Below, one piece after another: positions 9,647 through 64,000 of a DNA stretch of 64,000 bases; within the stretch, counting starts at the first letter, position 1; every line of letters begins with the position of its first letter. A model generated the notes under the pieces. That model saw only the letters and a list, made by a program, of their open reading frames with translations, was not told the DNA's origin and searched no databases. The translations under genes and the position numbers were made by a program. Source of the DNA: Amphiscolops sp. MND2022 (taxonomy: Eukaryota); the NCBI GenBank assembly GCA_964187785.1, contig OZ076409.1:1364001-1428000 (forward strand), given 5' to 3'.

Positions 9647-9703
9647 GAAAGAATTTGATATAGTTACAATTAAAACCTTGAGGATTATCTCTATAGCTCT
9701 GTT
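9647..9703 (+). repeat. Left copy of 57-bp direct duplication flanking the Polinton
   Basis: gaaagaatttgatatag...ctatagctctgtt; 56/57 identical to 24784-24840. Confidence 0.95.
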
Positions 9704-9873
9704 AGTAGTATAGGAAATCCCGATACGGGCCACAAAAACCCCAAAAATTAAAAGTCCTCAAAACCATTGATTTTAAGCACTTTTTAGAAAACAAATCATC
9801 GCGAAAGCTCCCGCAAAATAGTGTTTTTACCATGAAGCAAAATTCACTAACCTCTATAGTTTAATGTCAACGT
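9704..9873 (+). repeat. Polinton left TIR (170 bp)
   Basis: agtagtataggaaatccc...aatgtcaacgt; 9707-9873 is the exact reverse complement of 24617-24783. Confidence 0.95.
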
Positions 9874-9904
9874 CGCACACACAACAATGAAAAATAACTA
9901 ATAA

Positions 9905-10336
9905 ATGGCGCGACAGCTAACACAGCTTCACAATTACCTCTCATTCAAAGACTTTGTTGAAAAATATGGATTAAAAAACGAAGCAACTTCCAATGTAAAA
10001 ATAAAAGAAATACTTAATGAATTAAATATTCCCTGTGGAATATACATGAGAGATGATAAGTTTAACACTACCAGTGGTATAGTTAACTTACATCCCTCAG
10101 TGGGAACACATTGGGTTATGTGTACAAATCAAAATTATTTTGATCCATATGGATGCCCACCCCCAACTAATATACTTAATCATATTAAAAATGGTATTTA
10201 TTCAGAATATCAAATTCAGACCAACGACAGTTATTGCGCGGCGTATTGTTTATACACACTGTATCTCACAAATAAAATTGGGTTCAAAAATGCAGTACTA
10301 AATTTATACTACCAAACTTTCAAACTTAATAAATGA
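9905..10336 (+). CDS. Adenain-like (adenoviral-type) cysteine maturation protease
   Basis: GTHWV (His), YFDPYG (Asp), QIQ (oxyanion Gln) and YCAAYC (Cys) in the order typical of the Polinton protease. Confidence 0.92.
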   Translation: MARQLTQLHNYLSFKDFVEKYGLKNEATSNVKIKEILNELNIPCGIYMRDDKFNTTSGIVNLHPSVGTHWVMCTNQNYFDPYGCPPPTNILNHIKNGIYSEYQIQTNDSYCAAYCLYTLYLTNKIGFKNAVLNLYYQTFKLNK

Positions 10337-10539
10337 AGAAAATTAGTAATTATTCAACTCAATATAAAATTATCTCGCACAGCTCCACAGAACAGCTTCA
10401 CAATCAAAATCATGGGAAAAATACAACAAATTTGCAGAAGCTATCGCGGAAGCTATCGCATAAGAAAACATTATCAAAAGATAGACAAGAATTTATAAAT
10501 AACATTTCCGCTAGTGGATTCAAACAATTTAATCTATAA
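10333..10539 (+). CDS. Small basic hypothetical protein (possible core/DNA-condensing peptide)
   Basis: 68 aa, Lys-rich, ATAAATG start, packed between protease and penton. Confidence 0.6.
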   Translation: MKKISNYSTQYKIISHSSTEQLHNQNHGKNTTNLQKLSRKLSHKKTLSKDRQEFINNISASGFKQFNL

Positions 10540-10542
10540 TAA

Positions 10543-11850
10543 ATGGATCTATCCACCTTCGTAACATATGATAAAAAAGAATCTCTTCTTTTAAGTATTG
10601 CAAAATCTAATCAAGAAATTGTTGAAAATACTCATTCTAAACCACAAGAAACTCTAGAATTTAAAATGACTAAACAAAAAGAATCTTTCTCATTTGATGT
10701 TCCGTTACTACTGCCTGAAAAATGGATGATGGGAGTAACAAGTTTAGAAGTATACAACACTGTATATAACATTACTGAAAAGAATAACAAACTACAAATT
10801 ATTCTGAATGATCAACAACTCAAAGAACTTAAACTTGATAGTGGATTAATACTGTTTGTTGAAGATTTATACGTTACTTATTTTGGTAAACCTTACACAC
10901 TTAGTGAGAATAATGAAGTTGTAGAAAAGGCCAATAAACTTATTACTAATAGTTATTCTAAAAAGAATAAACTTACTAGAATAGATTTTGATTATTTAAC
11001 AAAGATAGTTAAATCACTCAATGAAATATACAACAATCGCCTCAACCAGGAAACAATAAACCAAGAAAAATTAAACCAAGAAAAACTAAATCGAGAAAGA
11101 ATAATTAAAGCATACAAAGATCACCTAAAACAGGTAAAAATAAATTGGGAAGAAATAAAGTGGGAGGAAATAATTTTGGAGGACGCGAAAGCTACCGCGA
11201 CAACTAACACAGCTTCGCAAACAACCCAAGAAAATCACGAAGATGACAAAGATGACGAAGATGACGAAGTAAACCAAGTAAACCAAGCAAACCAAATAAA
11301 TCAAATAAATTTACCCCCTTTTGACATTGTTGAAAACGATTTCTTTGAAATTTATCTAACACCAGGAGTTTATGAACTAGTTGATATAAATAATGCTATT
11401 AAACAAAAAATTAATGAAAGTGATTATGATTTCAAATTTGATTTAATACCTGACACAATATCAATGAAATCAGTTTTAACAACCTCAAACAAAATTCAAT
11501 TTAACTCCAAACTTAACACAGTCTTGGGCTTTACACACACAGTATACCCACCCGGAACTCACACTTCAGAAAAACCAGTCATGATAACAACCACCGACAA
11601 AGTTCATCTGAAGTGCGACTGTGTAGATGGTTCAATTGTTAATGGTATACGAGAACAAATTTTATTTTCTTTCAATTTAAGCGCACCTCCCGGATATAAA
11701 ATTATAAAAGAACCCACAACTGTTTTGTACAAATCAATTAACAAAACACGACTGGACACCATTCAATTTTTCCTTGAAGACTCTAATCATGATTCAGTTG
11801 ATTTCAACGGGGAGACACTCACCTTCACAATTCAAATTATCAAAATTTAA
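10543..11850 (+). CDS. Minor capsid protein (penton, single jelly roll) with large internal insertion
   Basis: C-terminus CDCVDGSIVNG..ILFSF..PPGYKI..P..LY..IQFFLED...VDFNGE is typical of Polinton pentons; the N-terminal YNITEKNNK and LTPGVYE..IN motifs are separated by ~180 aa. Confidence 0.85.
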   Translation: MDLSTFVTYDKKESLLLSIAKSNQEIVENTHSKPQETLEFKMTKQKESFSFDVPLLLPEKWMMGVTSLEVYNTVYNITEKNNKLQIILNDQQLKELKLDSGLILFVEDLYVTYFGKPYTLSENNEVVEKANKLITNSYSKKNKLTRIDFDYLTKIVKSLNEIYNNRLNQETINQEKLNQEKLNRERIIKAYKDHLKQVKINWEEIKWEEIILEDAKATATTNTASQTTQENHEDDKDDEDDEVNQVNQANQINQINLPPFDIVENDFFEIYLTPGVYELVDINNAIKQKINESDYDFKFDLIPDTISMKSVLTTSNKIQFNSKLNTVLGFTHTVYPPGTHTSEKPVMITTTDKVHLKCDCVDGSIVNGIREQILFSFNLSAPPGYKIIKEPTTVLYKSINKTRLDTIQFFLEDSNHDSVDFNGETLTFTIQIIKI

Positions 11851-11868
11851 TACTTTTAATAATAATAA

Positions 11869-12387
11869 ATGAGTTATAATAAATTTATAAATAATTCATA
11901 TTGTGTTGGTGGAAAACATTATTCTCCCACCAGAAATATTTATGGAGATATTACAAACACTGGGATGCAGATGGGCAGGCCCGTAAAAATATTACGTGGC
12001 AACTGCGTAACGTGTAACAGAAACAAGAGTCTAATTGTATCTGACCGACCAGTAGATGCGGAAGGATTGGGAGACTTTTTCAAACATTTAGGTTCTGCAG
12101 CCAAAAATGTTGGAAAGAAAATACTCAATAACCCAGCAAGAGCTCTAGAAGTAGCAGCAAATATTGGAACTGCAGCAGCAAGTAAAAATCCACGATTAAT
12201 TGCCGCAACTGCCCCCGATGTTATTAAATTTGTTCATCAAGGGAAGGGCCTATACAAAGCTGAAGCATTGTCGAGTAAAGGCAGCAAAATAGGCAACGCA
12301 AGCGGCAGCAAAGCAGCTAACACAAGCAACACAAACAGAAAAGCAAGAACTAATAGTAAAGGCCTTTATCTGGGGAAAATCCACTAG
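11869..12387 (+). CDS. Putative core/virion protein: Zn-ribbon-like N-terminus plus amphipathic helix
   Basis: YCVGGKH...LRGNCVTCNRNKS, then EGLGDFFKHLGSAAKNVGKKIL; basic; GxGL-like motifs. Confidence 0.7.
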   Translation: MSYNKFINNSYCVGGKHYSPTRNIYGDITNTGMQMGRPVKILRGNCVTCNRNKSLIVSDRPVDAEGLGDFFKHLGSAAKNVGKKILNNPARALEVAANIGTAAASKNPRLIAATAPDVIKFVHQGKGLYKAEALSSKGSKIGNASGSKAANTSNTNRKARTNSKGLYLGKIH

Positions 12388-12413
12388 TTATATGCATTAA
12401 TTATACTTAATAA

Positions 12414-13523
12414 ATGTATTCAATTCACACCCGAGATGATTTAGAAAAATTAAAAAAATTACAAGAAACAAAATCTTTAGTACGCAAAGAAAGATTAAAA
12501 GAGAAACTAGGGAAGCAAGACTTTCATTATGACCTTGAAGAAGTTTTTGAACCTGTTACTACAAAGCAGGTGGAATCAAATGAAAAACAACTACAAGCCA
12601 TTGACAAACAAACCCAAGGGGTTACACAAGCCATTGAAAATCAGACAAGAGCAATAGAACACAATAATAATACTCTTCAAAATTCTATTAAAGAAGGAAT
12701 AAAACAATATAATGAAAATACAAATCATATCAACCAACTTCTTACAAGTCTTGTTAATTCCAACCAGGTTGATTCTAGTATTGTAAAAACAGTTTCTAAT
12801 TTACTTAATGACAAAAACAAAAGTCAATTTAGTTTAGAACCCATAGAAGGTTATCCACACAGCTCCACAAATTTATTCACAATTAATCCCCATAACCCAC
12901 AACAAGTACTAATCAAAGGTTCAACAATAACTTTCGAGAATGGGAATTCATACAATTTAAATGACCCAGATCTTCAATATTTTATAGCTAATACACAATT
13001 TGACAAACAAATAAATAACTGGGACTCAATTTATAACTTCTTAAATGATATGAAATATGATCTAAATTATGGAGATAAAAAATCAATCAGATATCAATTT
13101 ATTAAAGAATTATACTCTCGCTTTCAATTGCAGGGCTACACGCAAGGCTTCGCGCAGGACTACACGCAAGGCTTCGCGGGGAGCTCTGCACAAGCACATG
13201 ATTTGCAGGGCTTCGCGGGGAGCTCTACACAGGGCCAATCACGCGAAGCTACGCAGGGCTTCACAGGAAGTGGATTGCGAAAGCTATCACGAAGCTACGC
13301 AAATGGCGAAAGCTCCACACAACAGTACATTTTCCTCCCATCTGACCCAGACGAATTAGTGGATCAATTGAAACTACTTTATTTTGAAAAAGTTGGAGGA
13401 AATGATAGTTTTTTGATTATTGAACAAATTATTGCAATTATAGACAAGTTATTGGAGTATGAATGCATATCACCTTCTCAACACCAAAATATACGAAGTT
13501 CCACAATCTCGTTAATTACTTAA
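12414..13523 (+). CDS. Conserved Polinton protein (coiled-coil N-terminus; C-terminal DPxELVxxLxLL..GN motif)
   Basis: LEEVFEPVT, GSGL and YIFLPSDPDELVDQLKLL..KVGGND..IIAIIDKL resemble a recurrent Polinton gene of unknown function. Confidence 0.75.
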   Translation: MYSIHTRDDLEKLKKLQETKSLVRKERLKEKLGKQDFHYDLEEVFEPVTTKQVESNEKQLQAIDKQTQGVTQAIENQTRAIEHNNNTLQNSIKEGIKQYNENTNHINQLLTSLVNSNQVDSSIVKTVSNLLNDKNKSQFSLEPIEGYPHSSTNLFTINPHNPQQVLIKGSTITFENGNSYNLNDPDLQYFIANTQFDKQINNWDSIYNFLNDMKYDLNYGDKKSIRYQFIKELYSRFQLQGYTQGFAQDYTQGFAGSSAQAHDLQGFAGSSTQGQSREATQGFTGSGLRKLSRSYANGESSTQQYIFLPSDPDELVDQLKLLYFEKVGGNDSFLIIEQIIAIIDKLLEYECISPSQHQNIRSSTISLIT

Positions 13524-14565
13524 AGGATCAGTTTGTGGATTAAAGATCTTGTAATTTGGATTAGATTCATTACAAATCCTGTACCTACTCCCATTTTTAT
13601 CTTCCAATCTGTTTATTAAAAGGTAGTTGAATTTTTCGTTCCATGCTTCTCTACACAAACTTTTGAATTCCTCATAAGACAAATCAAAACCTGATATGTC
13701 CCTATGAATATGTTCTACATCTTTCAGTGTTTGTTGAAATAAAATTATGATATTACTATTGTTTCTAACTGTCTTTTTTGGTGCATCAAAATAACTCTGA
13801 CATAAATAATAAACATCACAAGATTTGTGCCTTCCCCTAGTAAAAAATGGATCAATCAATTTCTGGTTGGAGTCTAACATATCATCAAATACTACACAAC
13901 ACCCCCTATACTCTTCCAAATCCCCCACATTTTCTTCCACTTCTATTCCTTGCGAAGCTCCACTAATATAAAGCTCCACATCCTCATATTGTTCCGGACT
14001 CCTTGTAATGATACGAATTTGTTTCTCTGGATCTTCCAAACGAATCAATCGTAATTTATTCAACAACAAATGAGTCCTACCACAAAATGATGGCCCAACT
14101 ATTAATGTTCTATTAGTTTCGTTCACACCACTATTAGCATTAGCTCCCGCGTTAGCTCCCGCGTTAGCTCCCGCGTTAGCTTCCGCATTATTATTATTAC
14201 TGTGTGAAGACACGCCTCGTGGTAACTCTCGCTGTAGCTCTAGTGTTAGCTGTCGCGATAGCTGTCGCGGAAGCAAATCACCCCCAGTATGCTGATTATA
14301 GTGCTGATTATAATTATAGTGTTGTTTATAGTGTTGTTTTTTAAGGTGTGACCTTAAATAACTCTTATTTAATTCCTTATTACAAAATTCACACCTCACC
14401 TTTTTATTAAAACATTGAATGCATGAAGAGTATATTTTACCATTTTTGTATGAATAAAAAGTATTACAATTCTTCATAATATTACAGTCTTTACATCTTT
14501 TTTTTATTACTACAATCATCACACAAACTTTTTTCACTACTTTTATTACAAATTAAGCAATTCAT
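13512..14565 (-). pseudogene. Zn-finger-fused FtsK/A32-type packaging ATPase 1 (apparent +1 frameshift; Walker A K>R)
   Basis: Walker A GPSFCGRT, Walker B VVFDD, FFTRGRH..YLCQ. The true start is likely the ATAAATG at 14565 (MNCLICNK..LCDDC), which joins the 13512-14537 frame if the 8-nt homopolymer at 14498-14505 is 7 nt. N-terminus has CxxC pairs and a C2H2 finger. Confidence 0.85.
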
Positions 14566-14579
14566 TTATTTAGTAAAAA

Positions 14580-14860
14580 ATCACTAATTTCCTCTAATAA
14601 TCACTATGTAATCACTATGTAATCACTATGTAATCACTAAGCAAATTTCACTAAATCACTAAGGTTTCACTATGTGTCTCTAAGAGTATTCATTTCTCTA
14701 AGATTAAAGATTATAGTGAAATTTAGTGAAAATAAATGCTCTTAGTGAAACCTTAGTGATTTAGTGAGAAATTTAGAGATTCTTAGAGATCACTAAATTC
14801 CTCTAAGAATCTCTAAATTTCTCTAAACTTCTCTAAACTTCTTTAAGAATCACTATATTT
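14580..14860. other. Intergenic repeat and double-hairpin region between the two ATPase genes
   Basis: tcactatgtaa repeats; 25-bp perfect IR 14648-14672/14743-14767; 23-bp perfect IR 14766-14788/14801-14823. Confidence 0.75.
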
Positions 14861-14889
14861 TTTTTGTTAATTTCTCGCGATAGCTTCCG

Positions 14890-16107
14890 CTAATTACCCA
14901 GTTTATTTTTAGTAAAACTTTTTGCCTGATCATAAATTAAATTTTTAAAGTTCTCTTTAAATGAATCACTAATCAGTGGTTTTTGCATGCGTTGTACGTA
15001 GTTGTCTATTTTGGATTCATTTACTCTGATGTTATTTTGTTTGCAATAAAACACATAATAATAAGCTATGTTGAGTGGTGTTATTTCAATTGTCTGGTCG
15101 GACATTTCCTCTAAGAAAATTTTGAGTCTGTTGTATTCATCACCAGTGAAAAAGTAACTTTCATAAGCAACGAGTTGTTCTGGACCCCATTTACTTCGTT
15201 TGCTCGAATCATAAATTAACTTGTACTTGTCGTTTAGAATCTTGTATTTCTGACTCCTTGTGTCAAATTCAATTATGCCATATTCTAACTGATCCCGGTA
15301 GTATTTCCAATTAAGCCCATTAACTGCGTCTTTGATCCCATAAGTTTGTACAATCGACTCGAAGAAATTATCTGGGTTATTAATTGTTAAGTATATTTTG
15401 AAGCAATTTTCCCTCACGACTGGAAGAACATCCTTTGCATAGTGAGCAAGGTATATCACTTGAATACCCAAGTGTCTACCAAATCGGAAAAGGTCTTCTA
15501 CTTTTGTTTTAAGACTCTTATATGCACCTGCATCATCCAGTACAACAATTTTATTAGCAAGTGATTCAATGCATACTTTTTCCAACTGCAGTAGCGGTAC
15601 AAAATTTTGAGAGGGAAACTCACGTTCATCTCGCCCGAAAACTACGTAAGTTCTTTGCCCTGCAACTTGTGCGTTAGCTATCGCCAAATAATGCTTTAAA
15701 AAACTTGTCTTCCCAGAGCCACTACTACCATAAATTATGAAATGCGCGTTGCAATGAGAGATATTATGAGATGGGGATTCTTCATGCATAGCTTCTTGTT
15801 CACGTTCCTGGTTTGTCAGATGAGAGTATTTGAACCCTTCAAATTGTAGTAGTTTTTTATAAATTGTTTTAAACTGTCTAGGGCGAATATAATTCCAATA
15901 TATTACAACAAAAATACCTATTAATATAATTAAACATACAATAAACATAGGATTTGTGATTACTTTATAAATTTGTGTTTTCTGATACCAATACAGTTTG
16001 TTGGCTCCTGCGGTAGCTTTCGCGCCAGCTCCATCACCTGTGCTAACTCCTGTGCTAACTCCTTGATCATTATTTCTATAGCTCTGGAAGCAATAATCAA
16101 TATTCAT
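14890..16107 (-). CDS. Second FtsK/A32-type ATPase with N-terminal transmembrane helix
   Basis: TM MFIVCLIILIGIFVVIYW; Walker A GSSGSGKT; Walker B VVLDD; LFRFGRH..IYLAH. Confidence 0.85.
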   Translation of the reverse strand: MNIDYCFQSYRNNDQGVSTGVSTGDGAGAKATAGANKLYWYQKTQIYKVITNPMFIVCLIILIGIFVVIYWNYIRPRQFKTIYKKLLQFEGFKYSHLTNQEREQEAMHEESPSHNISHCNAHFIIYGSSGSGKTSFLKHYLAIANAQVAGQRTYVVFGRDEREFPSQNFVPLLQLEKVCIESLANKIVVLDDAGAYKSLKTKVEDLFRFGRHLGIQVIYLAHYAKDVLPVVRENCFKIYLTINNPDNFFESIVQTYGIKDAVNGLNWKYYRDQLEYGIIEFDTRSQKYKILNDKYKLIYDSSKRSKWGPEQLVAYESYFFTGDEYNRLKIFLEEMSDQTIEITPLNIAYYYVFYCKQNNIRVNESKIDNYVQRMQKPLISDSFKENFKNLIYDQAKSFTKNKLGN

Positions 16108-16130
16108 TTATTTATAAAAAATTGTTATAA

Positions 16131-17075
16131 ATGAACATGAATCAAAAGGCGAAAGCTGGCACAGGAGACGGCGCGGAGCTTCGCGATAGCTCTCGCAAGA
16201 CAGAAATTGTTAGAGAAATATTCTCGCCTGTAATCAAAAAGTTTCAAAGAATTCAAATACAAACTCACTATAAAGATGAATGTTGGAGTATCGATTTAAT
16301 TGATCGCTCAAACTTAAGCAAATACAACAAAAACTACAAGTTTATTTTCACAATAATTGACAATCATACTAAATATGCATGGGCGATTCCTCTTAAAGAT
16401 AAATCAGGAAACAGTAGAACAACTGCATTAAAAAGTCTTATCGAAAAAACAAAAAGAAAACCACACAAAATATGGAGTCATAGAGGTAAAGAGTTTTACA
16501 ACACAACATTTTTACACTATTTAAAAGAGCAAAGTATTCAAATTTATTCAACGAATTCAGATTTGAAGGCTGTTTTTGTTGAACGCTTCAATAGAACACT
16601 TTTGGACTTAATCAAAGAACCAATGTATATTGAGGGTAAAGGTAACTGGTTGAATCACATTGATGCTGCTTTACAAAAGTATAATAATCGTGTCCATACC
16701 ACAACCAAAATGACACCTTTTGAAATGAGTTTTAAGAGCGCAATACCACGGAGCCACGCGCGCAGCTTCGCCAATCTGATACCTAATATTAATAAATTGC
16801 ACACAGCTTCGCCCAAGTTCCAAGTGGGAGTTTTTGTAAGAGTTCCTGACAAAAGGAACATTTATTCAAAAGGTTATACAACAAATTGGAATAGAGAACT
16901 TTTCAAAATACACAGCATCAACAAAACAAACCCAGTAAAATACACTCTAAATGATGAAAACGGAGAAATTATTCAAGGAAAATACTATGAACAAGAACTT
17001 TTAAGAAGCATATTCGACTTTGACTCTAACAACAAAACGTTAGAAAGTATGAATATTTTCCACAGGTTTGAGTAA
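16131..17075 (+). CDS. Retroviral-type (RVE) integrase; second catalytic Asp appears replaced by His
   Basis: WSIDLID, IIDNHTKYAW, KIWSHRGKEF (usually SD/TD-xGxEF), VERFNRTL, YNNRVH..MTP, KGYTTNW; no chromodomain. Confidence 0.92.
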   Translation: MNMNQKAKAGTGDGAELRDSSRKTEIVREIFSPVIKKFQRIQIQTHYKDECWSIDLIDRSNLSKYNKNYKFIFTIIDNHTKYAWAIPLKDKSGNSRTTALKSLIEKTKRKPHKIWSHRGKEFYNTTFLHYLKEQSIQIYSTNSDLKAVFVERFNRTLLDLIKEPMYIEGKGNWLNHIDAALQKYNNRVHTTTKMTPFEMSFKSAIPRSHARSFANLIPNINKLHTASPKFQVGVFVRVPDKRNIYSKGYTTNWNRELFKIHSINKTNPVKYTLNDENGEIIQGKYYEQELLRSIFDFDSNNKTLESMNIFHRFE

Positions 17076-17134
17076 TTTTCGACGTAGTTTCGCGGAGCTT
17101 TCGCGATAGCTTTCGCAATATTTTTTTATTATAA

Positions 17135-18367
17135 ATGAACACAGATATGTTTTCTTTAAAAAATAAATACACACTCGAAAAACCTATTCATAAAATTGAT
17201 TTCATAAAGTATAGTCCAAGTAGTTTGGCGACAGTCAATAATAATAATTCAAATATTTCAATCAGTTTACCAAGAGAAGATGCATACATATGTTTACAAA
17301 ATAGTTTCATAAGTCTAGAATTTGAAGTACTTAAAAACAATAATACAAGATTTGCTGATGGTGATGAAATTGGATTGGTTAACTTTGGGCCAATCTCTTT
17401 ATTTAGTGAAGCCAAATTAACAACTTCTAGTGGGAAACACCTAGAAAAAGTTGACAACTTGCACTTGATTTCTTTAATGTATAAACTTCTGACAAGCACT
17501 AAATCCACAAGTCAATTAATGTATGGGTTTGAAGAATATACTACTATCAGAAGACAAGAACTAACAAACAACAAAAATGAGAAAGGAACCTTTTTTGTGA
17601 GAATAAAACTAAAAGACTTGTTTGGATTTGCTGATCAAGAAAAAATAACTTATGGGTTGGGCTACACATTAACTCTCAAACGGAACACTAACAATGACGC
17701 CATTTTAAGAAGTGTTGGAGTGGATGCTGCAAAAGTGGTTATTAAAGACATTGGTTGGTATATTCCACACTATGTTCCATCACTGGAAAACCAACAACTT
17801 GTCATGGACCAAATTTTAAATAAAGATCCAACCGAATTGAGTTACACAGAACGAATTATTTTTAGAGAAGATGTTAACACAAATTCGAATTGGACATTTG
17901 AATTAGGCAGCTCGGGTGAGTCCTGTCCAACTTTTGTGATTGTTGGATTTCAAGCTAGAAATAAAATTGATTCTCAGGTTCATGATAATGCAGTGTTTGA
18001 CCGGTTGCCAATTAGTAATGCTGTTTGTAAAATAGGATCAGAAAAATATCCCGATGATGGGATAGAATGTGACTACGACCGTGACAAATATGATCAAGCA
18101 TACAGTGAAATTGAAAACTTCTATCACTTACATTCTGAAACTAGCTTACTCAATCCATTTATTGATTTGCATAAATTCAGGACAAATTACCCCCTATTTG
18201 TATTTGACCTCAGCAAACAAAAAGACCAAATAGCTTCTCAACCAATCCGTTTAGAATTTAAATTTAATGCTGCCATTGATGTAGCAGATTATATAGCTTA
18301 TGCGCTAGTCCTAACACCTAAACTGATAAGTATCAGTAGTGATGGGCAAAGGCATTTTTTGGTTTGA
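17135..18367 (+). CDS. Major capsid protein (double jelly roll)
   Basis: 410 aa, beta-rich; DAYICLQNSFISLEF, SLFSEAKL, PTFVIVGFQ and YPLFVFDLSKQ resemble the Polinton MCP; position within the element. Confidence 0.88.
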   Translation: MNTDMFSLKNKYTLEKPIHKIDFIKYSPSSLATVNNNNSNISISLPREDAYICLQNSFISLEFEVLKNNNTRFADGDEIGLVNFGPISLFSEAKLTTSSGKHLEKVDNLHLISLMYKLLTSTKSTSQLMYGFEEYTTIRRQELTNNKNEKGTFFVRIKLKDLFGFADQEKITYGLGYTLTLKRNTNNDAILRSVGVDAAKVVIKDIGWYIPHYVPSLENQQLVMDQILNKDPTELSYTERIIFREDVNTNSNWTFELGSSGESCPTFVIVGFQARNKIDSQVHDNAVFDRLPISNAVCKIGSEKYPDDGIECDYDRDKYDQAYSEIENFYHLHSETSLLNPFIDLHKFRTNYPLFVFDLSKQKDQIASQPIRLEFKFNAAIDVADYIAYALVLTPKLISISSDGQRHFLV

Positions 18368-18547
18368 TATGATAGGAATGATGAATCATAGATTAAAAAC
18401 TATAATTGATGTGATAACTAACGTGATAACTAACGTGATAAATGATGATAATAAATGATCATAAAATAATTATAATTAGCGTGTGTGCGAGAGCTAGCGC
18501 GAAAGCTATTGCGAAGCTACGCGCCACAATAGTTATCACGATAGTTA

Positions 18548-21500
18548 TCACAAAAAATGGGCCCGATCACTTATCAGATTTAAAAGATCTTGATGATTCA
18601 ATTTTTCTTTCAGAGTCCAAATGTTATAGTATATTTCTTCATCTGGGAGGCTTGTGCCATCCCTTGTGCTCAGTTCGGTGTAATACAAACCAACTAACTT
18701 TATACAAAGTATACAAGGACAATCACCTTTTTGTGTGTGTTTATCCCATGATAAACTTTGTATTGGATTCAAGTACATACGCTTGTCATCAAAAGGATTC
18801 AAAGCTAGCTTATCTTGTTTCTGAACAGTTAAGTTGTGAGCATTACTTCTAATAGAATAATTAGTTGCCGTAGTTGTTTCAGAATTAAATAATGAATTTA
18901 TAAATTGTGAATAAATTGGTGTATGTTGTATTCCTTTTTGTTTTGACTTCTGTGTTACCTTCTGAACTGAGCTTCCATAGCTAAAAGAATATGATTTAGA
19001 TCTCAAAGCTATGAAGTTGTCTAATTCAATAATTGGTGATGTTTCTATTTTCATTTTACCTATAACTTTCTTGTTAATAGAATTGTACAACTCATGACTT
19101 GGGTCAAGCTCACTAAAATCAAAATCATCTTTGAAGTATTCCAAATCATTTATAAGGTCTCCAGTTTTAATACTTAGAATGAATGAGTCTGTATCCGTGT
19201 AATGCAGTTTAATGTTTGCATCGCTGCGCGAACTGTAATATGGTTGTAATTTGTGATAATAAAACTCATACATTAACAATTTACTCAGTTCTAAAACACT
19301 AAACCCCAAGTATATTGGTTTATCAAAAATTACTTTTTCCTTATCAAACTTGTAAACACTGAATTCGGAGTAATGATTAGTGATTCCTTTAAAGTTTAAC
19401 TTCGATTGTCTTTTTATTATTTGATCAATATTGGTGTGGGGGATAAACTCTAAATTAGTCCGGTCTCTAACATTTTCCATAGTCTTCCCAAAGAAAGCGT
19501 TGTTCATTAATTTGTACAAGTCTTTTTCAAATTTTGTTTTTGCTTTGGTGCGTTTTTGTGTGTTATGATTAATGTATTTTTCTAACCAAAGTGATTGTTT
19601 GAACCGGTAGATTGTGTGAATCTTTGTTACTTTCATCCCCAAATTCGTGTAAAACTTGAACATCCTGTAGTGCATCATATAATTATATTTGTTTGTTAGG
19701 TCACACATAAGTTTCTCGGTTGGTTTGTAATTGGGCTGTTTTACTTTGTTCATGTATTCTGAGAAAAGATTTGGATCGGTTTTTGTTTGATAAGGACAAA
19801 GTGGAAAGTTTTCGGTTTTTTCTTTAATTTCTGCTGGATATTCTAAATCGCATTCTATAAAATATCCAAATTCATTGTCATCTGGTGTATTCAAAATGTC
19901 TTCTTTAATTTCATTCATCAGTGCAGAATCAGATTGCATAACTTCGCCGTGACAGTTCTGCGCGAAGCTACGCATCTTTTTAAAGTCTCCAATAGGAAGG
20001 TATTGACTCATTGCCCATCCATAAAGATTATTTGCATCAATGTACAAAAGTTTCGGACTTTCATTTGACTCAATGAATCTGGGTCCCATTACACTTGAAA
20101 TTCCACCACGAATATTATTTTCAAGTAGTAATAATAACTGTTTGTCTTTTATGAAATCTAATTTAATTTTAGTAAGTTTTAAACCAGCTTTCCATGTATA
20201 ACCAGGTAAAGAGTAACTGTACAACGGATTGATGCCGTACATAAGCGTGCTTGTTTCAACAAAGTTTTCGAACACGTCAGTGAGTTGTAGTACATCCATT
20301 TTTAAGTACAATTCTGTTAGTTCTTGTGCTGTTGTAATGTTGTAAGTGTCAATCAATTGTTGGGTTCTTTTTATATCATCCTCGCATGGGTAAGATTGAT
20401 TCAGTGTTGACCAATAGTCCTCTTTTGTTAGATTTAGTGGTTCATGCAGGTTGTTAAGATTGAATTTTTCGTATGGATAAGCTAGTTTTTTCTTAAATAA
20501 ATCATCAGTTAGGCCCTCATTTTGCATATAAGGAAAATCATTTAATGATGTTATAAGTTTTTGTAGACTACTACTCAAAAATCTGTATGAATCTAAAAAC
20601 CTTAAACAACCTACTTGCACACTTACATAATTTTCCAATGACTTTGGTATAATATTTATTGGTAACTTTAGATTATAAGCTGATGTTAAGAGTTCTTCAA
20701 AAATTAAATGACAATCATAACCACTGAAATTATGGAAAAATATAGGAACAAACGAACTTGACTTTTTTTTACAATTTAAATTACATTTGTTGTGGGCTGC
20801 TCCTCGGTACTTGCCTGTAAGGTGATCGTGGTCTCAAACTGTATCCTCACCAAGTGGATTTTCACAAAGCCAACACACTTTGGATTGTTGAAATGATTTT
20901 TCTTCTTCGGGGGTTATTTCAAGAGGAATATTAGTTTCGAAATAAATATTTGCAATTTTTTCTAAAGTCAACATTTCATTTACAAACCATGTTACACACG
21001 ATTCACCAAAGTATGAGCTGTAATTATTACCAAATGGTGAAATTATATAAAATCCTACTGCAATTGGAATTTGTTTAAATAATACTTTGGGCGCGATAGC
21101 TACCACAGCTTCGTGGTCATTTGTGCGAAGCTCCGCGGGTTGTGAAACTGCGTGATTAATGCATTCAAAATCTGCATATACTCTTATTGGTACGGGAACT
21201 TTCATATGATAATCTTCGAACTTTAAGTCATCCTTCCAACTGAATGTGATATTAGTTGGTTGTTGTTTTTGACAACGGTCAATGTGTTGATTGAGAATAT
21301 CCTCAGAACTAAATGCAGTTAGACATCTTCTACACACCCATTTCATGTGCGAATCCTTATTTAGTAAGCAATGCAATTTTGTTATTAGACAATAATGATT
21401 TTCAAATAGTACCAAGTCAATTTGTGATTGTAAGTAATTTTTGTTAATATGAATTGGTGTTAAAACTGTTTTTGTAAGTTCAAAAACATTTACGTTTAAA

Positions 21501-22462
21501 TTATTTAAGTTTTCGAACTTGGGAATATCTTTAATTTTCATGGGGAATTCTAAACCATTAAAAATGAGTTTGTTCGTGTGCATTGAATAACTTGATGTTC
21601 TATTTTTATGATCCTCAACAGGAAAAAGGTGTGCTAGGATGCACCACAAAAAGCAAAATTGATCATCATTTTTTATATTTATAAATGATTTATTATTCTT
21701 ATATTTTTCTGGCAACTCAACCCACGAAGAAGCTTGAATATCATTAACTTTATAAATTTCTAATATAACAGTGACAATACCATTTAACACAAAACCTGAT
21801 CCTTCTAATTGTTCATCATCTAATTTCTGCATTAATGTGTTATGCTGTGTGCCGAAGGCAATCTGTGTGCGAAGCTGCGCGTGATTGTAATTAAAATCTG
21901 ATTTAACCCATTTGTGAAATACAACTTCCTCATCATTAACTATTTTTGAAAACTTAGCTAAATAACTCAATTGGAACTTGTATCGGGGAAAGTAATTTTT
22001 ATTTAGTAAATCATTAATCTGTTCTTCAAGATGATTTGTTGGATTTACTCTCAGTTTAATGTATGTTTTTTCATTCACAATTATTTCTACGTTAGTTCCT
22101 ACGTTAGTTCCTACGTTAGTTCCAGAATCATGTAGTGTATTACCAAATGTGTTTTTTGTAGCGTTGCGATAGCTTTCGCGGTTTTGACTTCTTAACGTGT
22201 GAATTTCACTTTGGAAATGTCTTGAATTACTTATATATTTACCACAATCTTCACACCAAATTTGTGTAGCTTCGCGTTGTTGTTTGGTTTTGTTTTTATG
22301 TTCATCTGAATTTAGATGATTAGACTTGTCAGACAATGGCATAAATGTATTACATTTTTTACAATAATATTGATTTAATTTTTGTAAATGTTTTATTGAT
22401 TTTAGATGATCAGACTTGTAAGCTTTTTTATAATCAGAATTACAAATACTGCAGTTCTCCAT
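18548..22462 (-). pseudogene. Protein-primed family B DNA polymerase (~1304 aa) with one in-frame TGA at 20834-20836
   Basis: ORFs 20834-22462 and 18548-20638 are in the same frame. Read-through gives EDTV*DHDHLTGKYRGAAHNKCNL (EndoVII/HNH-like insert) and FFHNFSGYD (ExoII). Also ExoI YADFE; Pol motifs YIDANNLYG, KLMNNAFFGK, YTDTDS; vOTU-like NDDQFCFLWC..HYCLI; N-terminal C2H2-like fingers. Confidence 0.95.
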
Positions 22463-22574
22463 TTATTTATAATAAATTTATGAATTTAATAGAAGCATAT
22501 TTTTCAATAGTATATTTTTCAATTATTAGTGTTAATTTTTATTTTATTTTTTAAGTTAAAATTGAATAAATTAA

Positions 22575-23251
22575 TTATAAAAAATTGTGTGGTTTAAGTG
22601 GTATTGTTGGTGGTGTGTGTGAAGCTACTTGTGATTTTGTATGCGAAGCTGTGTGCGAAGCTGTGCTCGAAGCTGCGCGTGATTTTGTGTGAATTTCCTG
22701 TGAAGCTACCTGCGAAGCTTCGCGATAATTTTCAAATTGAGTCACAAATCGGTGATATTCTTTTTCATCTATATGATTATCTTCTAGGCTGGCGACATAA
22801 AGTTGTCTAAAGTCGTCAAGAGTCTTCTGAATAATAGTGTACTTAAGTTTATAATTTTGCTCCTTTTTCTTCAAATAACTAGAACAAATCTTAACAAGGA
22901 TACCAGTTGTACAACCAACTCCTGCAGCGATTGGAACAACTATAATACCCACACCAGTAATACTTAGTGAGATTGATGCTGAAGTTGTTCCAATCACTAT
23001 AATGCCATCGAGGGAGTTAATTAGGTTATTTATTAGCTTGTATTTGTTGTATTTCTGTTTGTATTTATTTTCTTCCATTTCAAAATATTTCATCATTAGA
23101 CTAATGTTTTGAATAGAATTATTGAAACTATTTACTTTTTGTAATTCGCTCTGCAACGCGCTATGCAATCGCTTATTTATCATTGATTCTACATCATATG
23201 GTGCTGGGGGAGAAGCCGTTGGGGTCAGGGGGGATAGAGTTTTTGTTCCAT
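22575..23251 (-). CDS. Membrane protein (hydrophobic hairpin, coiled-coil flanks); N-terminus apparently frameshifted
   Basis: Hydrophobic GIIVIGTTSASISLSITGVGIIVVPIAAGVGCTTGILV. The ATAAATG at 23251 joins the 23183 frame if the 6-nt run at 23228-23233 is 7 nt, giving MEQKLYPPLTPTASPPAPYDVESMINK. Confidence 0.7.
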
Positions 23252-23254
23252 TTA

Positions 23255-24082
23255 TTAATCATATAAAATGAAATTTATTTCCGTTGGTGTTAATTTCATT
23301 CTGTGTTTCATATCAACAAGGTCTTTATAGGAATCTTTTTTCAATGACTCCAGAATTGATTGTCTGGTAGAATATTCTAAATCAGACAGATAATATTCAC
23401 CATCTGAAGTAGGTATTGTTTTTCCATACTTTTCCTTTAAATAGGATTCGCTAAAAGTTAGATAATTTGCAAAAGCTTGATCTTTATTGGGAAAGGAATC
23501 GAACAAACCTTTGTCATAAAGCAGTTGAATTATGTTGTTAGTTATAGTAATTTTATTTTGATCTAGGCTATTAAAAATTTTATTAATTTCATCTTCATTT
23601 AAAATCATTCCAGCTTGACCCACCTGACTCATAAACTTTAAATTACGGACTGTTAACATTTCAAAACTATTGTTGTGTATTAAATTTAGTACCTCATTTA
23701 CTAAAACAGTTCTTTGTTCGGCGAAAGATTTTTTCATACTTTGTTCTAAATTATTTATAGTTTTTGAAAGGTCTGAAAACTGGGAATAAATATCATTCAT
23801 TAACTTTGTGTTTAATAAAACATTTTGAATTTCCTGGTGGTCTAGTGTTTGATGCGCCTTCGCGATAGCTACCGCGGAAGCTGTCACGTCTAGCATTTTT
23901 TCTTCTACTTGATTTTCTATGTCTTTTTCAAAATCGCGTTGCAAATCTTCTTTTAATTTGGAATGTGTTATTTGGGCTAATTTTTCTTGACTTTTTATCA
24001 TGTCTTTTAGCTCTCGATATTCCCTCAGTTTTAGCTGTTCACTAGAATAACCAAACTTATGAAGAGACGGAGTTTCATACAT
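23255..24082 (-). CDS. Hypothetical helical/coiled-coil protein
   Basis: 275-aa ORF with ATAAATG start inside the element; no recognised domain. Confidence 0.7.
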   Translation of the reverse strand: MYETPSLHKFGYSSEQLKLREYRELKDMIKSQEKLAQITHSKLKEDLQRDFEKDIENQVEEKMLDVTASAVAIAKAHQTLDHQEIQNVLLNTKLMNDIYSQFSDLSKTINNLEQSMKKSFAEQRTVLVNEVLNLIHNNSFEMLTVRNLKFMSQVGQAGMILNEDEINKIFNSLDQNKITITNNIIQLLYDKGLFDSFPNKDQAFANYLTFSESYLKEKYGKTIPTSDGEYYLSDLEYSTRQSILESLKKDSYKDLVDMKHRMKLTPTEINFILYD

Positions 24083-24122
24083 TTATTAAGATGAAAAAGT
24101 TGAAAAATACGCGAAGCTACGC

Positions 24123-24381
24123 AAAACCCATAGGCATGCTCATTTGCATTGGTATATGCATTGACATGCCTATGGTAAACTCAAAGCCCATCGGGAGTCC
24201 GTTCCACTAAGAGTTTCCACAGCAGGGATTATCCTTTTTAAGAACTGTGCCATTGGTGATTATTCTCCCATAGCATGTAAGTTGTAACAAAGACTGGGGG
24301 ACGTTGGATAGAAGTGAACCCCAAACACTCCGGCCGAAGCCTTAACTTTAGTCAATGCTATAACCACTAAGCTATGGGAGA
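24123..24381 (-). ncRNA. Candidate Pol III structured RNA (tRNA-like/VA-RNA-like)
   Basis: Minus strand: TATATAA at 24408-24402, A-box TAGCTTAGTGG at 24374-24364, GGC-UUCG-GCC at 24341-24332, B-box-like GGTTCACTTC at 24320-24311, 11-bp stem 24381-24371/24274-24264, first T4 at 24126-24123. Confidence 0.45.
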
Positions 24382-24426
24382 CGAATCAATGTTAGTTGTA
24401 GTTATATAAGAATAACGTATGCGCCG

Positions 24427-24614
24427 GTACATTAACGTTGGCTGTACATTAACGCTGGCTGTACAGCAACGTTGGTTGTACATTAACGTTGGTTGTACAT
24501 TAACGCTGGTTGTACATTAATGCGGGTTGTGCATTAATGCTGGTTGTGCATTAATGCTGGTTGTGCATTAATGCTGGTTGTGCATTAATGCTGGTTGTAC
24601 ATTAACGCTGGTTG
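24427..24614. repeat. Subterminal 17-bp tandem array (~11 copies) next to the right TIR
   Basis: Unit gtacattaacgYtggYt with gtgcattaatgctggtt variants. Confidence 0.9.
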
Positions 24615-24616
24615 CA

Positions 24617-24783
24617 ACGTTGACATTAAACTATAGAGGTTAGTGAATTTTGCTTCATGGTAAAAACACTATTTTGCGGGAGCTTTCGCGATGATTTGTT
24701 TTCTAAAAAGTGCTTAAAATCAATGGTTTTGAGGACTTTTAATTTTTGGGGTTTTTGTGGCCCGTATCGGGATTTCCTATACT
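24617..24783 (-). repeat. Polinton right TIR (167 bp; lacks terminal ACT)
   Basis: Ends ...gatttcctatact rather than ...ctatactact. Confidence 0.95.
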
Positions 24784-24840
24784 GAAAGAATTTGATATAG
24801 TTACAATTAAAACCTTGAGGATTATCTCTATAGCACTGTT
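24784..24840 (+). repeat. Right copy of 57-bp flanking duplication
   Basis: gaaagaatttgatatag...ctatagcactgtt. Confidence 0.95.
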
Positions 24841-47649: not shown

Positions 47650-47848
47650 TGTAGTAGAGGTCATTGAAGTGTTTGTAAATACGTACTAACAACCTGTCAA
47701 AAGTCTAGCTCTAGAATTCTATGCTAGCATCAGTTGCCACGGAGCCTTGAGAGAAAACACGTTTGATAGAAAACATTTCAATTCAGTTCGATAATACATT
47801 CTTCATCCTCTCAACCTTTTATATTCTTATTCGAGTTCCACGTCAACA
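47650..47848 (+). repeat. 5-prime LTR
   Basis: tgtagtagagg...cacgtcaaca. Confidence 0.97.
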
Positions 47849-50800
47849 TGGCGCTGCGAGCAGAAAGCAGCAATTCTTCCTCTTTAACACTGTCAACAAC
47901 TGCAATGTCGCACCTCGTGGGGCTTCCAGTGTATTGGCATGAGGCCAATTCAACCCCTACTATGGACTGGGACAAGTGGCTGGATCTTTTCCAGGTGGCC
48001 GTCATGGCCAAATTCTCAATCTCAATCACCGAGCTGACCCGTGAAGCTGATCAGCAGAATCCAAGGGCACGAGCTTTATTGGGGGATATGGACGAAGACC
48101 CTGCCAACAAAAAAGTGGTTAGTGTAATGTACTTGTCACTTGGAGAGGCGGCAAGGAAGTTGTTCAAAGATAAATATCCCCACACGACCCTGTGGAATCT
48201 AAAGGTGAGAGAACTAATACAACTAGCCACGGACTGTTTCCAGATAAAAAGAAACCGAACTCTCGACCGGCACAAATTTTTTTCGAGAATGCAGCAACCC
48301 GGCGAGACGCTTCAACAATTTTGGCACACGCTAAATGGGCTAGCAGCCCTTTGTGACTTCGGGGAGATAACGAAAACCCTTGTATTAGATATGTTCATCC
48401 TTCACATGAACAATAAGAAGGTACAGGAGAAACTTTGTACAGAGCCCCGCGAGCCAGATCAAGCCTTAGAATTTGCAATCGCATTCGAGGAGGGGGTGAA
48501 AAGACAAAAATCATACGGCTTACAAACAACAGAAAACCCCAAAATTGCGGTGAAAACTGAGCCTGTGTATGCAATTGAAAAATCAGCTAACCAGAGGGAA
48601 TGCTTCAGATGTGGGGAATCCAACTTTACCCCGGATCACATAAAAAATTGTACAGCAACAAACTACAGATGTAAATTCTGCAAAATTGTCGGGCATTTGG
48701 AAAAATGCTGTAATAAGAAGTTTCCCCAACGACAAAAAGAAATGCTGCAGAGACTAAAATCCAGAAGCAGTAACTTTCAAGGAATGCGAAGAGTGAATTA
48801 CATTGATGAGGAAAGCGAGGAGGAGGAATCTGACAGTAACGAAGAGCAATTAGTTCTCCAAATCGACGGAAATGGAAGCAAGCCGTTCTACATGGAAGGA
48901 ACCATGTGTGGAAATTATTTTAAAGCTATCATTGATACTGGGTCCCCGGTATCTATTTTTACAAAACGAGATTTGACAAAAATCATCGGAAAAAGAAAAG
49001 TGGTTATCAGGGAAATGATAGACAACGAGCGGTATGTTGATTACAACAAGAAACCCCTGGATCTATTGGGCTATCAATTTGTACGCGTAGAAGTTGCTGG
49101 TGTTACTGTTTCGAAGGCAAGAGTGCTAGTAGCACCAAACAGCGGAAAGTCCATAATTGGCCGTGATTGGTTAATTGCTCTACGCTACAACATTAGCCAG
49201 CCAATAGAAAGAGGTGAGTGTAAAGTAAACACTAAAACGGAGGGTGACGCCGAAACGATAAATGAGATAAGTCCCCAAGAAAGTATCAGTCCCGAAGTTA
49301 AACAAATAATGAGGGAATTTCCAGATTTGTTCAAGAGAAAAGGTCGAGTAAAAAATTACGAAATTAAAATCGATATGAAAGATAATGCGAAAATTTCACA
49401 ACAAAAGGGCCGCAGAATTCCTATTCAACTACAAGAGCAAGTAGATAAAGAAATTGAAAAACTGCTAAAAGACGGCCATATCGAAAAAGTAGACAAAATT
49501 CAAGATGATGTATTCATCCAACCAACAGTCATTACGGTTAAAAAGGATAAATCGGTGAAAATAGCGCTAGATGCACGTGCCCTGAATGAATCAATAGCTA
49601 AAGACAAATACCAGATGCCAAACTTAGATAATTTGATAGATATGATAGCAGAAGAATTGGAAAAAAGCGAAGGGGAGGCCTGGTATTCGTCTGTAGATAT
49701 GACTTACGCCTACGGGCAAATCCCACTACATGAGCTAACAAAAAGACATTGTAATTTTCAGATAGTTGGAGGAAAATCAACTGGTACATATCGATTTACT
49801 ACCGGGTACTACGGACTTACAGTAATGCCAACTGAATTTCAAAAATTAATGGATTTAACGCTAGCCAATGTAAATAGTGTATTTGTGTATATAGACGATA
49901 TCTTAATTGTAACTAAGGGAACTAAGCAACAGCATGTAAATAAAGTGAGAGAAGTCATGAGAATACTGGACGACGCCAATTTGCAGCTAAAGGCGGGAAA
50001 ATGCATAATTGCTCAAGACAGCATAGAATGGCTAGGCTTCAAATTAACGCGAACTGGCATTTCCCCAATTAACACAAAATCCCAGGGCATAAGCGAAAAA
50101 CTACGACCAACCAATTTAAAACAATTACGCTCATTTTTGGGCGCAGTAAATCAATTTAATAAATTTATACCTAGTTTAGCCTCAATTAGTTTCCCTTTTA
50201 GATCCATTTTAAAGAAAGATGCAGAGTGGGAGTGGAATGAAGATCACGAAAAAGCTTTTGTACAAATTAATAAAGAAATTAAGAGTGTAGTAGAATTATC
50301 ACATTTCAAACGGAACCAAGAAATTAGAATAATTTGTGACGCAAGCAAAAGTGGATTAGGCGCAGTACTACAACAAAAACAAAGCAATAATGAATGGAGA
50401 CCAATTTGCTTTGCCTCACGTTTTTTAACAGATTTCGAAACAAAATATTCCATAAATGAATTGGAACTTTTAGCAATCGTATGGGCAGTCGAACATTTTA
50501 AAAATTATGTATATGGTGTACAGTTCAAAGTAATATCAGACCACAAAGCGTTGATGTCAGTTTTGAAACCAAATAGAGGGAATAAAACCTTTTCAAGCAG
50601 GTTAACTAGATGGGTAGACAGATTACTACCCTTTGATTTCGAAGTAGTGCATGTAGCCGGGAGGACACTAGGAATGGCGGATTATTTATCGCGTCATCCA
50701 ACTGAATTAGAGGGAGCATCATTAAAAGCAGAAGCACTGTGGAATGAATGGTTTACTGTAAATAGTGTAAATAGTTTGAAAGATGTTTTAGAAGACGAGA

Positions 50801-57976: not shown

Positions 57977-58305
57977 AGATGTCCTTCCTTTTCAATCTTC
58001 GGACAATATTTATTGTAAAGTATCTTGCCTTTTAGGATATAGGTGATTCCACTCAATCCGTCTGAGTTCAAATGAACGTTATCCTTTTTTAGGTGTTTCT
58101 TGCCAAACACTTGCCTGGAAATTCCTCTGAACTTCCAGCCTTCTTGACAAGAAGCAAGTAAAGAATTAACTTCTTTTGCTTGGAGAGGTTGAGAGTTGCG
58201 TAAAGGTATACCAAGAACGAAAACCTTTTTAGCTTTGGTTAATGAAAGATTTGCAAGATCAGATATCTGTCGAACCAAGTTTTTTGTCGTAGTGGCAAAT
58301 AGGTT
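57977..58305 (-). pseudogene. C-terminal half of an SGNH/GDSL-hydrolase-like ORF
   Basis: KVFVLGIPLRN..EVNSLL...HLKKDNVHLNSDG (block V DxxH). Confidence 0.7.
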
Positions 58306-63300: not shown

Positions 63301-63736
63301 ACTTTAGGTGCGATAAATGCTTACTCACGCTCATGAGACTTCCGAAAGTTTTCTTCCAATTCTCAAAGCGTTTTTCGAGTTCGCTTTCTAATCTTTTCAG
63401 GATTTCCTTACGGTTGCCTTGGAACTTATCTTTCAGAAATGGAAGATGTTTTTCAAACTCCTTGCGCAGCTTGCTCTTTGAAGTTGTGTAAGTTACGAAG
63501 AACTTACCGACGTCTACCCAAACTGTTGGATCCTGAACTTGCAGACTTTGGAAATCCGAGTCTAAATTTCTGAGAATCAAAATAAGATCTGAGACACGTT
63601 TTTCGTGTTCTATCCATTCTTTCATTGTTGATGAATTTTTCAAGCAGTCAGTAAAATAGACTTTTCGTTCATCCCCACCTTTTGACGATGTCATATATGT
63701 GGGGTCCCAGAAATCGCTTTCATTGGATTTGGCCAT
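60334..63736 (-). pseudogene. BEL/Pao gag-protease, fragmented by frameshifts and stops
   Basis: LPKLKLSDF..DPLEW..F, KMSHLK..VKGKAK; CPLKDGDH..C, CFCCLNSH..C, CGVNGCTKKHNKLLH; ALCDTGS; TAG at 60334-60336 in VGLL*(W). Confidence 0.9.
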
Positions 63737-63775
63737 TTTGTACTTCAAGTGTTGATTGGATACAAAATAGTGCTT

Positions 63776-63793
63776 TCCCGGGTCGCGGCACCA
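63776..63793 (-). promoter_or_regulatory. Primer binding site (tRNA-His-like)
   Basis: Minus strand TGGTGCCGCGACCCGGGA resembles the complement of the tRNA-His 3-prime end. Confidence 0.75.
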
Positions 63794-64000
63794 AAATTTT
63801 ACGTCTGCAAGGTAAATTAACAAAAACACTTACCAAGTTTTACGACGGCCTGTTTGTCAACTGGAGGACAATTCTAAAACTACTTTGTCCAGGAAAGGCA
63901 CTTGCAAAATCCACTACACACAATAATTTCGAGATGTCCTTCCTCTTCAATCTCCGGACAATATTTATTGTAAAGTATCTTGCCTTTTAGGATATAGGTG

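Follow-up and report, generated by a model that had tools for sequence, protein, structure and literature searches.

Promoter Systems of Poxviruses and Polinton-Related Viruses

According to a review on the gene classes of vaccinia and mpox viruses (PMC11980589), late promoters have three features: TAAAT is mostly continued by a G overlapping the start codon; the 10th nucleotide before TAAAT is a conserved T, with less conserved T's around it; and the upstream sequence is AT-rich and prefers T. A start-codon signal of the same three-part layout is described here from an animal Polinton/Maverick, that is, a provirus of about 15 kb with 12 genes between inverted ends, which lies in a 64,000-nt stretch (the window) of contig OZ076409.1 of Amphiscolops sp. 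MND2022. ATAA directly precedes the ATG at all 12 gene starts, and its wider form is T[AT]ATAAATG. As far as our searches show, it is new for all genes of an animal Polinton clade to have a late-promoter layout of the pox type; no description of a TAAATG that abuts the start codon in Polintons, Mavericks or adintoviruses was found in the literature searched, which left subscription journals largely outside.

The 10th nucleotide upstream of TAAAT is position −13 in the numbering of the element. In the terms of that review, the element and the poxvirus late promoters are alike in the TAAAT + G on the start codon, the T at −13 and the T-preferring, AT-rich sequence upstream; they would also share the use of one compact promoter per gene in tightly packed genes. 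An earlier note on this DNA had likened ATAAATG to the poxvirus late initiator, and the likeness goes beyond TAAATG, as it also takes in the T at −13 and a G/C-poor, T-rich sequence from −15 to −1. There are differences as well. Poxviruses are cytoplasmic and bring a multisubunit polymerase and late factors of their own, whereas the element, a resident of a nuclear genome, has genes for neither; poxvirus transcription is initiated within TAAAT and gives poly(A) leaders, which are only proposed for the element; and the signal stands on all genes of the element, while the late signal of poxviruses belongs to one temporal class.

Promoter sharing of small polinton-like viruses with giant viruses is already known in protists. 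The promoters of mavirus resemble the late motif of CroV, and integrated mavirus is switched on by CroV (10.1101/068312); likewise, PgVV-14T has the early motif of its helper PgV, AAAATTGA (10.1101/2022.07.28.501842). Virophages and polinton-like viruses resemble the element in having small polinton-related genomes without a polymerase and one short motif across the genes, and when they are integrated they can stay silent until the matching machinery is present. Unlike the element, they live in protist hosts and a helper with the same motif is known; moreover, the motifs of mavirus (CroV-late-like) and PgVV are different ones and sit upstream of the start codon, not on it. In yeast, a short promoter for each gene and non-templated 5′ poly(A) leaders are reported for pGKL1/2 (PMC6831550). 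These are cytoplasmic linear plasmids, relatives of protein-primed PolB elements, and the single short promoter per gene is what they would have in common with the element. pGKL1/2 encode their own polymerase and capping enzyme, and their upstream motif is different.

The closest relatives by gene content are the animal Polintons/Mavericks (polintoviruses, adintoviruses), with which the element shares inverted ends, 6-bp target duplications (in its other copies), PolB, an rve integrase, a capsid protein, an A32 ATPase and a protease candidate; the presence of two A32-like ATPases in the window family is unlike typical animal Polintons. A uniform, conserved start-codon signal with the three-part layout of poxvirus late promoters gives a concrete handle on Polinton expression, and it hints at an unusual way of switching genes on.

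Start Motif of the Window Copy

In the 64-kb window, ATAAATG occurs 32 times, whereas dinucleotide shuffles contain 19.8 on average and 32 were reached in 1 of 100. Of the 32 in the window, 20 lie within 9901–24086. Between the inverted ends, on both strands, 20 of 495 ATGs are preceded by ATAA, versus 12 of 1530 in the flanks. When the 12 gene starts are set apart, the background in the element is 8 of 483 ATGs (1.7%); therefore, the probability that all 12 starts carry ATAA by chance is negligible. That 12 genes start with ATAAATG had been claimed in the earlier note, and all 12 of its coordinates, which are given in Table 1, are right. As for the other eight ATAAATG sites in the element, additional genes were considered and rejected, as no conserved open reading frames (ORFs) are headed by them: the ORF at 18442 is open (at least 130 aa) in just 3 of 11 aligned copies, that at 16861 (68 aa) is found in 3 of 19 copies, and the site at 18158 is absent from 19 of 19.

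The start module, as the term is used here, extends from −14 through the ATG. Its register does not depend on the spacing of the genes. The tandem junctions measure −4, 3, 3, 18, 26, 59, 112 and 324 nt, and the earlier remark that the gaps are often only a few bases is right only in part. At starts that lie 59–324 nt past the previous stop, the motif abuts the ATG all the same, and so it does at the four starts without an upstream gene on the same strand, namely 9905, 24082 and the divergent pair 16107/16131. From −15 to −1 of the 12 starts, G and C together make up only 10 of 180 bases, two of which are G, and the sequence is T-rich around −14 to −6. Position −13 is T at 9 of 12 starts (the exceptions are 9905, 16131 and 23251), and position −3 is T at all 12. 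AATAAA is contained in 10 of the 12 motifs and TATAAA in the other two.

Conservation of the Motif and Its Absence from Host Genes

Ten other copies of the window family were compared as separate stretches, and 19 copies for the integrase start. Of the 117 aligned starts in the ten copies, 116 have retained TAAATG. In 16 of the 19, the integrase has a different N-terminus with its start a few bases downstream, and that ATG again reads ATAAATG; in copies with a 33-nt insert ahead of the homologue of 10543, the spacer still ends in TTAATAAATG at the ATG. Because of these two cases, the signal can be said to follow the start codon and not the DNA position. The block from −14 to −5 is the best kept among the copies, with an identity of 99.3–99.6% versus about 96–97% in flanking blocks of 20–30 nt, although these values come from related copies and local alignments and are supporting evidence only.

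The copies also bear on the starts at 14565 and 23251, where the frames of the window copy are broken and which the earlier note had predicted from the motif. The frame that opens at the ATG matching 14565 runs for at least 337 aa in 8 of the 10 other copies, and that from the ATG matching 23251 for 209–246 aa in 9 of 10, so that both predictions were correct. In this clade, TAAATG can be used as a practical rule for finding the true gene starts.

Beyond the family, 2488 capsid relatives were collected by a profile-free search, and two distant lineages, both with a capsid identity of about 30%, could be studied at the DNA level. The first lineage consists of three short metagenome contigs with 31–32% G+C. 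It has TAAATG at 5 of 5 starts: tatataaATG for the capsid, tatataaATG for the protease homologue, ctagtaaATG, and ttaataaATG twice; L060:74, an apparent exception, was rejected as an internal ATG of a gene cut by the contig end. The second lineage, which belongs to the genome of the window, is a decayed family of low copy number. One of its copies has TAAATG at 6 of 7 starts; at the remaining start this copy has TGAATG and a second copy TATAAATG, which makes 7 of 7 across both copies. Orthologues with 22–49% protein identity and a different gene order keep TAAATG. Across the lineages the invariant letters are TAA + ATG, while −5 (A or T) and −4 (A or G) vary, including TGTAAATG; in the two other lineages, −13 is T at 11 of 11 starts, and T makes up 35% of the bases from −30 to −5. 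No further relatives with DNA were found in IMG/VR, searched with the capsid alignment and two single capsid proteins, or in prokaryote genome contigs.

A sister Polinton family in the same genome, here called family B (L095/L096, contig 7), has PolB, rve, A32 and a C48 protease, 37–41% G+C and ordinary start contexts: TAAATG is found at 0 of 12 ORF starts, and −13 is T in 5 of 12. Host starts were drawn from four gene families (6 tubulin, 4 histone, 8 HSP70 and 9 Ras); 13 tubulin matches with the ATG in another exon, 6 Ras matches without an ATG in the stretch and 6 loci with two candidate ATGs, none of them preceded by TAA, were dropped from the count. The earlier note had named beforehand a common host start context ATAAATG as a ground for giving up the idea of a special signal. 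TAAATG stands at 0 of the 27 host starts, and −3 is a purine in 22 of them and T in one. The host Kozak context was thus rejected as the source of the motif, whose T at −3 is opposite to the host purine.

Possible Role of the Start Module

The motif in its fixed register is conserved in three lineages and in rearranged gene orders, and it is absent from host genes and from the sister family. With a probability of roughly 0.55, it may be read as a compact promoter on each gene, whose initiator would overlap the start codon. That is to say, each of the 12 genes would have its own promoter of about 15–25 bp, in which the module would act in three parts: the T at −13, about one helical turn upstream, the G/C-poor, T-rich spacer, and TAAATG. 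RNA would most likely start in or just before TAAAT, so that each mRNA would cover a single gene and have a very short leader or one of slipped poly(A); because of initiation at the place proposed, the signal would stay on the ATG whatever lies upstream. The module could be read by a host polymerase together with some further factor, or a poxvirus-like helper could provide its polymerase or late factor; in view of the copy number in the germline, the host polymerase is somewhat favoured. If the promoter reading is true, it would lead either to a new compact promoter type used in animal nuclei or to the first sign of a link between animal Polintons and giant viruses.

Several points weigh against such a promoter. 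Its role in transcription is something that we infer from the layout of the letters, and the comparison with poxviruses rests on the wording of the review (PMC11980589) and not on poxvirus sequences analysed here. TAAATG occurs 13 times on the sense strand inside genes, compared with 11.3 expected, so that a start cannot be defined by the hexamer on its own. Runs of at least 5 T's within −30 to −5 are present at only 4 of 12 starts (control ATGs: 9%), and three starts lack the T at −13. The AATAAA in 10 of 12 motifs makes a 3′-end role conceivable, no polymerase or transcription factor is recognisable in the element, and the three lineages with TAAATG are all AT-rich (28–32% G+C), with TAA as the commonest stop.

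Three further explanations were tried and rejected. From a TATA box, the RNA would start about 25–30 nt downstream and the ATG would be removed, whereas the first Met of the capsid protein is almost invariant among 27 relatives and the N-terminus of the protease is conserved from about residue 5. A trans-splice acceptor is ruled out by the lack of AG, given the two G's mentioned above. Avoidance of the poxvirus early terminator T5NT was not seen, with 8 observed and 8.5 expected.

The base composition of AT-rich DNA would be the simplest source of the motif, as the element has 32% G+C and TAA stands before 36 of its 495 ATGs, but chance is already refuted by the counts, that is, 12 of 12 starts versus a background of 1.7%, along with the repetition in two lineages and 10 copies and the absence from host genes and family B. 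The earlier note had also thought of a signal linked to poly(A). AATAAA could be the polyadenylation signal of the upstream gene, or part of an insulator, and overlap the next start through compactness; ATTAAA, AGTAAA and TATAAA, which are known variants of the polyadenylation signal, are seen in the copies or the other lineages besides the AATAAA and TATAAA of the window copy, and additional copies of ATAAATG lie past the capsid stop, where no gene starts. However, what is invariant is TAA + ATG and not AATAAA, whose −5 and −4 vary (A/T, A/G), and the motif abuts the ATG despite spacers of 59–324 nt and is present at four starts without an upstream gene on the strand. Within the genes AATAAA is not avoided (35 on the sense strand versus 31.6 expected from synonymous shuffles; ATTAAA 25 versus 26.5), so a dedicated copy would be unneeded, and the T at −13 would have no role. 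These points weaken the poly(A)-linked alternative, which we regard as quite improbable. A signal for translation would require the fixed register to the ATG that is observed: an in-frame TAA beside the ATG could serve termination–reinitiation or start selection on multi-gene or short-leader mRNAs, and at three junctions the stop meets or overlaps the start (ATGA at 10333; TAA TAA ATG at 10543 and 23251). Most junctions measure 18–324 nt, however, four starts have no upstream ORF on their strand, the T at −3 is the opposite of the host purine (22 of 27), and we know of no reinitiation signal with a conserved T at −13 and a G/C-free spacer; a role in translation is accordingly held to be very improbable.

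A special case of the promoter reading is a dependence of the virophage type, in which a poxvirus-like large DNA virus infecting the same animal would supply the polymerase or late factor that reads the module, and expression would take place mainly during co-infection. It would be in keeping with the vaccinia late layout in its three features (TAAATG on the start, T at the 10th nucleotide upstream, T-rich AT context), with one signal common to all genes of an element without a polymerase, with the lack of adaptation to nuclear 3′ processing in the AATAAA and ATTAAA counts above, with the absence of the signal from the sister family in the same host, and with the protist precedents of mavirus/CroV (10.1101/068312) and PgVV-14T (10.1101/2022.07.28.501842). 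On the other hand, no helper virus is known, the likeness could come from convergence or shared ancestry, and the NCLDV capsid (PF04451) and VLTF3 (PF04947) had no match in the host assembly, which is weak evidence as the controls were silent too. The 2848 capsid-gene candidates found at first look in the 1.07-Gb germline genome, of which the 102 scored are 93–100% identical to the window copy, suggest frequent germline activity, and a high germline copy number fits a helper-free element at least as well. A dependence of this kind is therefore possible but unlikely. More broadly, it is a doubtful but conceivable idea that this Polinton clade is either a virophage-like satellite of an undiscovered poxvirus-like virus or the keeper of a grammar ancestral to poxvirus late promoters. 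If it were true, a slipping polymerase of the virus type would read TAAAT and make poly(A)-headed mRNAs, and the integrated copies, in their thousands, would form a dormant reserve to be awakened by infection.

Structure and Genes of the Element

Slight decay is seen in the element, which is one copy of a very abundant animal Polinton/Maverick provirus. It has the hallmarks of this group: inverted repeats, duplications of about 6 bp (in other copies), PolB, an rve integrase, a double-jelly-roll capsid and an A32-type ATPase. The decay of the window copy consists of an in-frame TGA in PolB and the broken frames just after the starts 14565 and 23251. Judged from other copies, the left end lies 3 nt further out (AGT), and the terminal triplet of the other copies is absent at the right end of the window copy. 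A target-site duplication of about 6 bp is usual in Polintons/Mavericks. Both ends were located in 7 of the 10 other copies, and the duplication has 6 bp in five of the seven and about 27 bp in one, while one has none. The window copy is atypical in its flanks, where 57 nt of host sequence are directly duplicated (9647–9703 and 24784–24840, 56 of 57 identical). The rest of the window contains a Gypsy-like retroelement with one open frame of 1594 codons and a BEL/Pao-like element on the minus strand (regions 47770–52554 and 58259–63829), which mark the host as an animal.

Table 1. Terminal repeats and genes of the Polinton/Maverick element in the window. Gene positions include the start module; the start codon is given by the position of its ATG.
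Feature	Position	Strand	Start codon	Start sequence and remarks	Match or relative
Left terminal inverted repeat	9707–9877			171 nt	99% complementary to 24613–24783
Adenain-like protease candidate, 143 aa	9891–10336	+	9905	ctaataaATG; −13 = A	49% identity to L062:3414–3809 (metagenome), 33% to L063 7464–7781 (second lineage, same genome)
Basic protein, 68 aa	10319–10539	+	10333	ttaataaATG; module inside upstream coding sequence, ATGA overlap, junction −4 nt	
435-aa protein	10529–11850	+	10543	TAA TAA ATG	32% identity to L062:1148–1954
Cys-rich/basic protein, 172 aa	11855–12387	+	11869	taataaATG	36% identity to L063 3791–4249, start agtaaATG
369-aa protein, no family	12400–13523	+	12414	ttaataaATG	22% identity, E 1e-9, to L062:275–1144, start ttaataaATG
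A32-like ATPase 1, N-terminal Cys-rich region	13512–14579	−	14565	module 14563–14579, taaataaATG	Pox_A32, E 3.5e-4
A32-like packaging ATPase 2, 405 aa	14890–16121	−	16107	module 16105–16121, taaataaATG	Pox_A32 (PF04665), 29.7 bits (cut-off 22.8)
rve-type integrase, 314 aa	16117–17075	+	16131	gttataaATG; −13 = A	PF00665, E 1.5e-7
Double-jelly-roll major capsid protein, 410 aa	17121–18367	+	17135	tttttttattataaATG	PF21738, E 8e-24
Protein-primed family-B DNA polymerase (PolB), N-terminal zinc-finger part	18548–22476	−	22462	module 22460–22476, taaataaATG; in-frame TGA 20834–20836	
Membrane protein, about 225 aa	22575–23265	−	23251	module 23249–23265, TAA TAA ATG; −13 = A	
275-aa protein, no family	23255–24096	−	24082	module 24080–24096, ttaataaATG; first gene inward from the right arm	
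Right terminal inverted repeat	24613–24783			pairs with 9707–9877	

Six of the 12 proteins have no family in the Pfam search, and no RNA polymerase, late transcription factor or other transcription factor is matched among the 12, which agrees with the earlier statement that the element encodes no RNA polymerase. The protease candidate has no Pfam match itself, while its homologue at L063 7464–7781 matches Peptidase_C5 with E 0.004, below the cut-off. The 435-aa protein may be a penton or minor capsid protein, which is a lead only; in the Atlas it has feature matches to unnamed Nucleocytoviricota clusters with scores of 0.95–0.96, and the Atlas look-up of the 369-aa protein gave no usable match. 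In ATPase 1 of the window copy, the frame is broken between the ATG at 14565 and the long ORF 13512–14552, with a stop after 24 codons, and that of the membrane protein is broken just after its ATG, with a stop after 8 codons. The start of ATPase 2 diverges from that of the integrase at a distance of 23 nt, and the PF00665 score of the integrase (32.0 bits) is just below the curated 32.6.

The PolB gene of about 1300 codons has no direct Pfam match. Its C-terminal 761 aa are 32% identical (740 aa aligned, E 9e-115) to a PolB elsewhere in the same genome, which matches PF03175 at 4.7e-22, and in 2 of the 10 other copies the frame is open as far as the compared stretch extends (1263 and 1278 codons). 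The PolB of family B is 32% identical to the window PolB and shows the same split between zinc-finger and polymerase parts.

Other Repeats and Spacers

A second word, AGCT[TA]TCGCG, is strongly over-represented together with its relatives in the region 9800–24690, often in a 12-nt register (AGCTnnCGCGnn). With at most one mismatch, 23 of its 24 matches in the window lie inside the element, versus 2.4 expected; examples are found at 14148–14183, 14254–14269, 17091–17117 and 23861–23882. The word is found in the two inverted repeats, in spacers close to gene starts, and inside genes, where it is in frame and encodes low-complexity runs. It may act as a binding site or represent a small mobile GC cluster; TTTCGCG, which is part of it, resembles an E2F site. 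The word is absent from the other two lineages with TAAATG, where TTTCGCG is found 0 times.

A stretch of 530 nt (24083–24612) separates the last gene from the right inverted repeat and has no counterpart in the left arm. The part at about 24190–24390 looks tRNA-like by eye, and behind it a unit of about 20 nt (GTACATTAACG[CT]TGG[CT]T) is repeated in tandem about 10 times; ARAGORN and Rfam found nothing in 24083–24612. The 324-nt spacer before ATPase 1 (14566–14889) carries many direct and inverted copies of TTAGTGA/TCACTAA and TCTCTAA, as well as a hairpin at 14753–14836 with 36-nt arms, which has a weak, below-threshold match to two miRNA precursor families, and this spacer may be a regulatory or origin-like region.

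In the host genome, the core histone genes H3, H2A, H4 and H2B lie on one strand in a 3.63-kb unit, which forms long tandem arrays at L065 (contig 4) and on many small contigs, with 6411 candidates at first look.

Past the capsid stop, at 18410–18460, a 12-nt periodic repeat (GTGATAACTAAC...) passes into repeated ATAAATG/AATAAA. The number of these repeats varies among the copies, and they may be a 3′-end signal for the capsid mRNA.

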